Of a stretch of 64,000 nt of DNA, positions 39,185-40,273 are shown piece after piece. The stretch lies in the sequence record PQ666539; one strand, 5' to 3'. Every line of letters begins with the position of its first letter. The stretch's first letter is position 1. The notes beneath the pieces are model-generated. The model was given only the letters and a program-made list of their open reading frames with translations. It did no database searches and was not told the origin of the DNA. A program made the translations under genes and the position numbers. Source of the stretch: Shigella phage sb1.

Positions 39185-39519
39185 TTCATAATCACCAGAT
39201 AAGCAGATTTAGCATTTTCAACACGATAAATTTCGTCACGAAGTTTATTTATACTTTTAATAACAGAACTAATTATATTCTGCCCGTCTTTAAAGCGGTT
39301 TTTCTTATCAATAAAAATTGCGCCAATAATCTTTTTGTGAAGCTCAACCGGATACTTCGTCACGATAATAGCATCATACACAGAAGGATGAATACTATTC
39401 ACTAGAGTATCGTTCATTAAAGTTATTCTAATGAACTGTGCTGTTTCAGAATCAAGCGCTCTATGATCGCCAGTATCATTTTCAAGACAATTATCAATTA
39501 TATCAGTTAAATTCATCAT
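39181..39519 (-). CDS. Hypothetical protein (T4 cd.1 position)
   Basis: 112-aa ORF overlapping the cd start by 4 nt. Confidence 0.6.
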   Translation of the reverse strand: MMNLTDIIDNCLENDTGDHRALDSETAQFIRITLMNDTLVNSIHPSVYDAIIVTKYPVELHKKIIGAIFIDKKNRFKDGQNIISSVIKSINKLRDEIYRVENAKSAYLVIMK

Positions 39520-39686
39520 AGTACGCCATACACCCTTTGTGCTTCAACTAATCCATCAAAATCCAATTTGAGATGTGTTATTTGGTCACCATCGCCTGGA
39601 TTCACAATTACTAATACCGAACGAGGAGTTTCGGTAATAACACGAACCGATGTTTCAGGAAATCGTTCAGAAACTTTATTTACCAA
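39516..39686 (-). CDS. Possible small protein; the same frame continues upstream through an in-frame TAA (39687-39689) with no canonical start
   Basis: Hand translation: ...EKPITVKEFQEKVKLFAQ(stop)LVNKVSERFPETSVRVITETPRSVLVIVNPGDGDQITHLKLDFDGLVEAQRVYGVL; absent from the track because each piece is under 60 aa. Confidence 0.35.
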   Translation of the reverse strand: MVNKVSERFPETSVRVITETPRSVLVIVNPGDGDQITHLKLDFDGLVEAQRVYGVL

Positions 39687-39745
39687 TTACTGAGCAAATA
39701 GTTTAACTTTTTCTTGGAATTCTTTAACAGTAATTGGTTTTTCAC

Positions 39746-40273
39746 TTAGAATGTTGATCCTAGCTCCTTACTTTCAACGTTTTTAACTAATTTAACAGAA
39801 ACTAATTCGGCATCTTGGGTAATCATTACCGGGCCTTCTTTATACTCTTCAAGATATTCTAGAGCTTTCTTTTTAGCTTCTTCCTTCGTATCAGTTTGAG
39901 CATAGATATAAAACATACAACCAGTAATACCTACTACTTTCCACTTAATTTCTTTGTCAGTTTTAATTTCAAATTTACTGACAGAATCATCTTTTTGAAC
40001 TTCTTCGAAAAAAGAATATTCTAACATATAATCAATTGAAAATAACGGGCTAACTTTATAGGATTCGCCCATTACATCAACAGCTTTATACCAACAGTCA
40101 TCAATTTCGCGTTTAATGCTAATAACATTTTTCGCAGGATCTATTTTTACTTTAAATGAATTTTCTCCAATAAACTGAGCAATTCGTTTATTGGCCCCGC
40201 AAGTTTCATTAAAAATATATTTATATCCAGCTTTAAAGCGATAAACCTTATCTTCTTCAAACCATTCGCTCAT
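39746..40273 (-). CDS. Hypothetical protein
   Basis: 175-aa ORF. Confidence 0.6.
   Translation of the reverse strand: MSEWFEEDKVYRFKAGYKYIFNETCGANKRIAQFIGENSFKVKIDPAKNVISIKREIDDCWYKAVDVMGESYKVSPLFSIDYMLEYSFFEEVQKDDSVSKFEIKTDKEIKWKVVGITGCMFYIYAQTDTKEEAKKKALEYLEEYKEGPVMITQDAELVSVKLVKNVESKELGSTF

Follow-up and report, generated by a model that had tools for sequence, protein, structure and literature searches.

The question at this locus is whether a phage gene has decayed in its lineage or whether the sequence that represents it is at fault. The DNA concerned is a 64-kilobase (kb) stretch of Shigella phage sb1 (record PQ666539; hereafter the window, meaning all 64,000 nucleotides (nt) analysed), in which a protein-like frame lies on the minus strand between the gene cd.1 and an open reading frame (ORF) of 175 amino acids (aa), has no canonical start codon and is interrupted by an in-frame TAA. 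What lies here is an ordinary cd.2 gene of the T4 family (Tequatrovirus), and its two lesions are most likely two hits of a random, unselected layer of substitutions that extends over the window, that is, a problem of sequence quality and not of gene decay. The features on which the argument turns are the following.

39516..39752, minus strand: disrupted cd.2 ortholog (78 codons plus stop), with about 97% DNA identity to annotated cd.2 and a match to PF24005
39750..39752, minus strand: ATT in place of the cd.2 ATG, from the alignment and the list of private changes
39687..39689, minus strand: TAA at cd.2 codon 22, where the relatives have GAA (Glu22), from the alignment and the list of private changes
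39764..39769, minus strand: AAGGAG Shine-Dalgarno of cd.2, the same in ime09 and ESh26
39516..39519, minus strand: ATGA, a 4-nt overlap of the cd.2 TGA (39518-39516) and the cd.1 ATG (39519-39517)
39516..39686, minus strand: 56-aa ORF with a TTG start, made up of cd.2 codons 23-78, its TTG being what encodes Leu23 in intact cd.2

On inspection of the letters, the frame was as an earlier reading of the sequence alone (the sequence-only reading) had described it, without a canonical start and with an in-frame TAA at 39687-39689. Its translation consists of GARINILSEKPITVKEFQEKVKLFAQ and LVNKVSERFPETSVRVITETPRSVLVIVNPGDGDQITHLKLDFDGLVEAQRVYGVL, the two parts being bounded and separated by stop codons, and from the upstream stop (39770-39768) as far as the TAA there is no in-frame ATG, GTG or TTG. 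The AAGGAG and, at a spacing of 11 nt downstream of it, the ATT that occupies the former cd.2 start are likewise present. The frame had also been said to end 1 nt before the start of cd.1, which is wrong, as its TGA shares an ATGA with the cd.1 ATG. Such an ATGA layout is typical of translational coupling, and from this arrangement cd.2 appears to be coupled to cd.1.

In the phages ime09, ESh26 and pSs-1, the three relatives compared at the locus, the homologous stretch of 237 nt carries the annotation of a 78-aa protein, and the gene is named cd.2 in ime09; gene order and strand around cd.2 in the three genomes are those of the window. Alignment with the cd.2 genes of these phages placed ATG opposite the ATT of the window and GAA opposite its TAA. 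On the coding strand both differences are G>T changes, ATG>ATT being a C>A at 39750 on the plus strand and GAA>TAA a C>A at 39689. The cd.2 start overlaps the 3' end of the 175-aa ORF by 7 nt, and because of this overlap the G>T that destroys the start also converts that ORF's last codon, TGC (Cys), into TTC (Phe). The 56-aa part of the frame matches the Pfam family PF24005 (DUF7320) with 73 bits (E=2e-20, profile positions 23-77), above the family's gathering score of 27 bits, and the intact ime09 ortholog matches it end to end with 117 bits (positions 1-77). Given this match and the high DNA identity to annotated cd.2, chance does not account for the coding character of the frame.

The full-length form is the rule in the cd.2 family, with a length of 76-82 aa in 25 of the 28 homolog clusters, down to 62% identity, and related phages were not found to carry only the short TTG-initiated ORF, or no gene at all, at this place. 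The short forms make up three clusters, all of them singletons, with 56 aa in phage HY03 and 49 and 53 aa in the other two. Relatives found at the level of structure, from T4 (P39498) and from phages of Klebsiella, Erwinia, Serratia and Salmonella, have 75-77 aa. Residues at 12 of the first 22 positions of cd.2 are invariant in the family. In the AlphaFold model of cd.2 (predicted local distance difference test, pLDDT, 86), a single long helix spanning residues 10-31 packs against an antiparallel sheet of four strands, and the TAA would fall inside this helix, the only one of the predicted fold. The 56-aa ORF is without the 12 invariant N-terminal residues and without about two thirds of the predicted helix, no purine-rich Shine-Dalgarno precedes its TTG in the sequence, and it is a mechanical remnant of the disrupted cd.2. 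The possibility that it represents a natural short isoform was considered and rejected, the sole natural example, that of HY03, being a frameshifted full-length gene.

The two lesions were then compared with public sequences, using 35-mer queries in which every 28-nt seed covers the variant base. The ATT version was found in 0 phage records and the ATG version in 307, while the TAA version was found in 0 and the GAA version in 176; collections of viral, genome and metagenome contigs did not contain the TAA variant either, and the full-length orthologs that were fetched had both ATG and GAA in 10 of 10 cases. Exact look-up among about 15 billion public proteins returned none of five window proteins that carry private G:C>T:A changes (changes peculiar to the window) and four of five that carry none; the 175-aa ORF as it stands had no exact match among these proteins either. 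Reversion of only the private G:C>T:A changes gave exact public matches for six of nine proteins, as listed here.

Reverted cd.2 (two G>T changes): 768 contigs, including ime09 AEK12469.1
Reverted 175-aa ORF (three G:C>T:A reversions): 39 contigs, and an exact match to ime09 AEK12470.1
Reverted alc (six changes, two of them stops): 285 contigs
Reverted gp19: 276 contigs
Reverted rIII: at least 1000 contigs
Reverted 30.7: 247 contigs

Since the reverted cd.2 is an exact database protein, the other three private changes in the gene are synonymous; and since reversion restores exact copies of common proteins, the genome underneath is that of an ordinary Tequatrovirus in which cd.2 is under normal constraint.

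The window as a whole is T4-like phage DNA (Tequatrovirus), with an identity of about 96% to Shigella phage pSs-1 and relatives; in the phage collection nothing matched it exactly, the best identities being about 96-98%. Private changes were scored at 44,715 sites that are invariant in at least four of five relatives (pSs-1, KNP5, KNP1, ES12 and SH-1). The window has 718 private changes at these sites, 219 of which are G:C>T:A (111 G>T and 108 C>A), a rate of 1.37% of the G:C sites (1.43% for G>T and 1.31% for C>A), versus 44 in the reverse directions (27 T>G and 17 A>C); extrapolated to 64 kb, the G:C>T:A changes amount to roughly 300 events. The 219 changes are strand-symmetric and uniformly distributed over 4-kb bins (chi-squared p=0.22). 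No trinucleotide context was preferred, with rates of 0.8%-2.5% (chi-squared p=0.54) in a test of limited power, and no runs of G>T versus C>A were detected along the strand (z=-1.4). Close pairs were not in excess at 3 nt or less and marginally so within 10 nt (17 versus 9.7 expected, p=0.016), and there is almost no frameshifting indel noise in the coding regions.

Within coding sequences, the G:C>T:A changes fall 82, 71 and 51 times on codon positions 1, 2 and 3 (p=0.43 versus random), and they comprise 158 missense, 24 nonsense and 22 synonymous changes versus a random expectation of 161.9, 23.7 and 18.3 (p=0.66). Because both the effects and the codon positions correspond to random expectation, the layer has not been filtered by selection. 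Private transitions in the same genes are, unlike the G:C>T:A layer, mostly synonymous (317 versus 71 missense), which is the normal mark of purifying selection. A minor unselected admixture of other substitutions was also observed, such as TTA>TAA in gp23 (T>A, 11618) and ATG>CTG in gp34 (A>C, 55607).

The consequences for gene content were determined by mapping onto the window all 83 coding sequences of pSs-1 that it covers. In total, 33 premature stops and three start losses were counted, distributed over 24 of the 83 genes; the rate of the layer predicts 26.9 knocked-out genes. G>T or C>A is involved in 32 of the 33 stops, one of which also has a G>A, and these stops arise through GAA>TAA, GGA>TGA, GAG>TAG, TCA>TAA and TAC>TAA. 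All 33 together comprise 26 TAA, four TGA and three TAG, each in place of an ordinary sense codon of the relatives. Stop-codon reassignment or dependence on a suppressor was rejected as an explanation, all three stop codons appearing in place of sense codons. The genes hit include gp15 (ATG>ATT), gp16, gp17 (two stops), gp18, gp22 (two stops) and gp23, and the hits extend to gp51, gp27 (two stops), gp29, gp48, uvsY and alt, to alc (two stops), rnlA (three stops), nrdA (two adjacent stops) and gp32 (codon 9), and to gp34 (four stops and ATG>CTG), gp35 and gp36. The functions concerned include the terminase, the tail sheath, the scaffold, the major capsid protein, the baseplate, gp32 and the tail fibres. 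Break sites lie, for example, at 575-577, 1858, 2975 and 3461 (the nonsense positions of gp17), 4125 (nonsense, gp18), 10043, 10312, 11618 (nonsense, gp23), 20143, 22634, 23075, 43198, 43384, 48399-48402, 53212 (nonsense, gp32), 55607, 56717-59156, 60109 and 61230. With essential structural and replication genes stopped, the sequence is incompatible with a viable phage.

The sequence-only reading had noted that the same two kinds of change occur elsewhere in the window, and this is borne out by the premature stops and start losses across the 24 genes. Its proposal that a gene here had lost its start and gained a stop is upheld insofar as the orthologs have ATG and GAA at the two positions; the decay specific to this gene that it implied is not, the lesions being part of a window-wide layer.

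These observations can be brought together in one course of events. A normal early gene cd.2, encoding a 78-aa DUF7320 protein, has received two G>T hits, ATG>ATT and GAA>TAA, and both belong to effectively random G:C>T:A transversions that extend over the window with a minor admixture of other types. This layer lies over an ordinary phage genome shaped by selection and has itself never passed through selection. Its source is most likely outside phage biology, either guanine damage or base-calling error that became fixed in the consensus, or a deliberate or in-silico alteration, and a real phage, should there be one, would then have cd.2 in its intact 78-aa form.

The implicit model of the sequence-only reading, in which the dispensable early gene cd.2 became a pseudogene in the phage lineage, can point to two independent disabling lesions within a single 78-codon gene and to other records in which cd.2 is broken (HY03, through a 1-nt deletion, and the short forms of 49 and 53 aa). 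It is nevertheless largely refuted, and we consider it very improbable: essential genes are hit by the same G:C>T:A class at the same rate, with no enrichment in cd.2, the remaining private changes in cd.2 are all synonymous and speak against relaxed constraint, and neither lesion is present in any related genome. At the window rate, a gene of the size of cd.2 receives at least one knockout hit in 15% of cases and at least two in 1.1%, and several other genes carry two or more. That cd.2 is expressed all the same, through AUU initiation behind the AAGGAG combined with readthrough of the TAA, or in the form of the 56-aa TTG product, is hardly credible. Its Shine-Dalgarno is intact 11 nt upstream of the ATT, the TTG follows directly after the TAA, the 56-aa ORF keeps 73 bits to DUF7320, and a gene caller made the same call in HY03; however, ATT and TAA are conserved in no ortholog (307 records have ATG and 176 have GAA), 25 of the 28 family clusters have lengths of 76-82 aa, 12 of the first 22 positions are invariant, and the TTG has no purine-rich Shine-Dalgarno. 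In the pLDDT-86 model, moreover, the TAA would cut the helix 10-31 that packs on the sheet, and essential genes, for which recoding is not known, have like lesions.

A different view takes the changes as genuine guanine damage, suffered in vivo or in the particle and fixed in the sequenced molecule or in a tiny population, so that the sequence is that of a real but dead hypermutated genome in which cd.2 and about 24 other genes are truly broken. G:C>T:A and A:T>C:G are the transversions classically tied to oxidised guanine (mutM/mutY and mutT spectra), and the window has a dominant G:C>T:A component beside a lesser A:T>C:G component that appears unselected (11 of 37 private changes at codon position 2, and the ATG>CTG of gp34); the changes are substitutions only, and beneath them the window is otherwise a normal mosaic Tequatrovirus. 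We nonetheless judge a dead genome unlikely. A single damaged duplex should give strand-coordinated runs, of which the runs test found none, the 219 changes show no context preference, and a genome with stops in gp23, gp17, gp18, gp22, gp32 and others cannot replicate; being non-replicating, it would be visible only through single-molecule or amplification-based sequencing, i.e. as a template artefact. The proposal that the layer is real in-vivo guanine hypermutation, for example by an oxidative or enzymatic host anti-phage process of which a non-viable molecule was captured, is scarcely probable, and if it were true cd.2 would be merely one of many casualties. Most likely, the layer is an artefact rather than a real dead genome.

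Several points weigh against this preferred reading, in which cd.2 was hit by an artefactual layer. The layer is most likely owed to damage, error or alteration, three sources among which the sequence alone does not distinguish. Oxidative artefacts of the known kind favour certain sequence contexts, such as CCG>CAG or the 5'-G of GG, and no such preference was seen here, within the limited power of 219 events. In an assembly with normal coverage, consensus-level errors would not usually reach about 1.4% of the G:C sites, and cd.2 is plausibly non-essential, a real knockout of this gene alone being not implausible. There are, finally, two long stretches that are 100% identical to pSs-1 and have no G>T, one at 30224-31320 (1097 nt, inside the second Alt-like gene; uncorrected P=0.006) and one at 5694-6405 (712 nt; uncorrected P=0.035), the latter covering a 205-aa ORF that among the five relatives only pSs-1 has; after multiple testing these stretches are probably due to chance.

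As to the kind of artefact, G>T far in excess of T>G, together with some A>C, resembles guanine-oxidation errors or errors from G/T and A/C channel confusion. Neither a single damaged template nor a modification-specific nanopore error fits well with the lack of context and of strand runs. Nanopore base-calling error at modified cytosine (glucosyl-hydroxymethylcytosine, glucosyl-hmC) was rejected as a candidate, there being no k-mer context and practically no frameshifting indels; a literature search on such error at glucosyl-hmC found nothing specific. Lesion segregation from a single damaged duplex was rejected on the negative runs test, and local regions of low quality on the uniform rate in 4-kb bins and the marginal excess of close pairs.

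For the use of this record, the layer means about 33 premature stops that are false, together with several lost starts and some 200 missense changes that are likewise false. Until the sequence has been verified, any call of a lost start, an in-frame stop, a pseudogene or an unusual residue in the window is suspect, and annotation of the sequence unchanged leads to dozens of spurious pseudogenes and truncated ORFs, of which the 56-aa TTG ORF is an example.

The neighbourhood of cd.2 is that of the T4 family, the order on the minus strand being pseT, cd.5, cd.4, cd.3, the 175-aa ORF, the interval, cd.1 and cd (dCMP deaminase). Two further features belong to it.

39746..40273, minus strand: 175-aa accessory ORF, which overlaps the cd.2 start by 7 nt and has no Pfam match
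40304..40332, minus strand: promoter-like site (TTTACT, 17 nt, TATTAT, with TG), identified as a consensus match only

The 175-aa ORF is an accessory insertion, and its 3' end carries the AAGGAG that serves cd.2. In HY03 (L009, 2860-2940) the cd.2 ATG stands exactly at the site of the ATG of the 175-aa ORF, with the same promoter and ribosome-binding region. The promoter-like site is located upstream of the transcription unit of the 175-aa ORF and cd.2, and as it resembles an early promoter, the intact cd.2 may, with low confidence, be regarded as a small early protein. Elsewhere in the window, an ORF of the DUF2774 family (15039-15223, minus strand) has a 1-nt indel relative to pSs-1 that brings a stop near the C-terminus; it is the only frameshift-type difference seen in the coding regions.

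When compared with known systems, cd.2 resembles the T4-family gene (ime09 AEK12469.1; T4 P39498) in position (pseT ... cd.3, cd.2, cd.1, cd), strand, Shine-Dalgarno and ATGA, and differs from it in the window by the ATT start and the TAA at codon 22, which leave no full-length ORF. The T4 protein P39498 is named 'Uncharacterized 8.7 kDa protein in cd-pseT intergenic region'; cd.2 is already known as a conserved, uncharacterised ORF of the T4 family, and nothing new has been gained on it here. In fold, the predicted structure is similar to generic modules of an alpha helix and a four-stranded antiparallel beta sheet, such as the KA1/AMPK-alpha C-terminal domain, TplEi (a type VI secretion system immunity protein) and RnlA NTD/NRD. 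These matches have weak scores that spread over many unrelated families, with 5-15% identity and no functional site in common, and as far as the model goes they amount to a resemblance of fold only.

Escherichia phage HY03 (KR269718.1) offers the closest parallel to the remnant, as an identical 56-aa TTG-initiated piece of cd.2 is annotated there as a gene, a call that was made because the N-terminal part of cd.2 is disrupted. It differs from the window in the nature of the lesion, which is a 1-nt deletion in the A5 run at codons 4-5 and not a substitution, and in the absence of the 175-aa ORF. The disrupted cd.2 of HY03 lies at 2936-3171 of L009, and its 56-aa remnant bears the misleading label 'putative olfactory receptor-like protein', which has passed into other records, e.g. 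KNP5 and SF2-1.

The layer itself may be compared with the guanine-oxidation spectrum, G:C>T:A being the change produced by the 8-oxoguanine (8-oxoG) artefact of library preparation and by mutM/mutY mutators. The window differs from this spectrum in that no context preference is detectable and in that the changes stand in the consensus at about 1.4%, not in a low fraction of reads; it resembles it in that G>T and C>A are dominant and strand-symmetric, accompanied by minor A:T>C:G, and in that substitutions only are involved.
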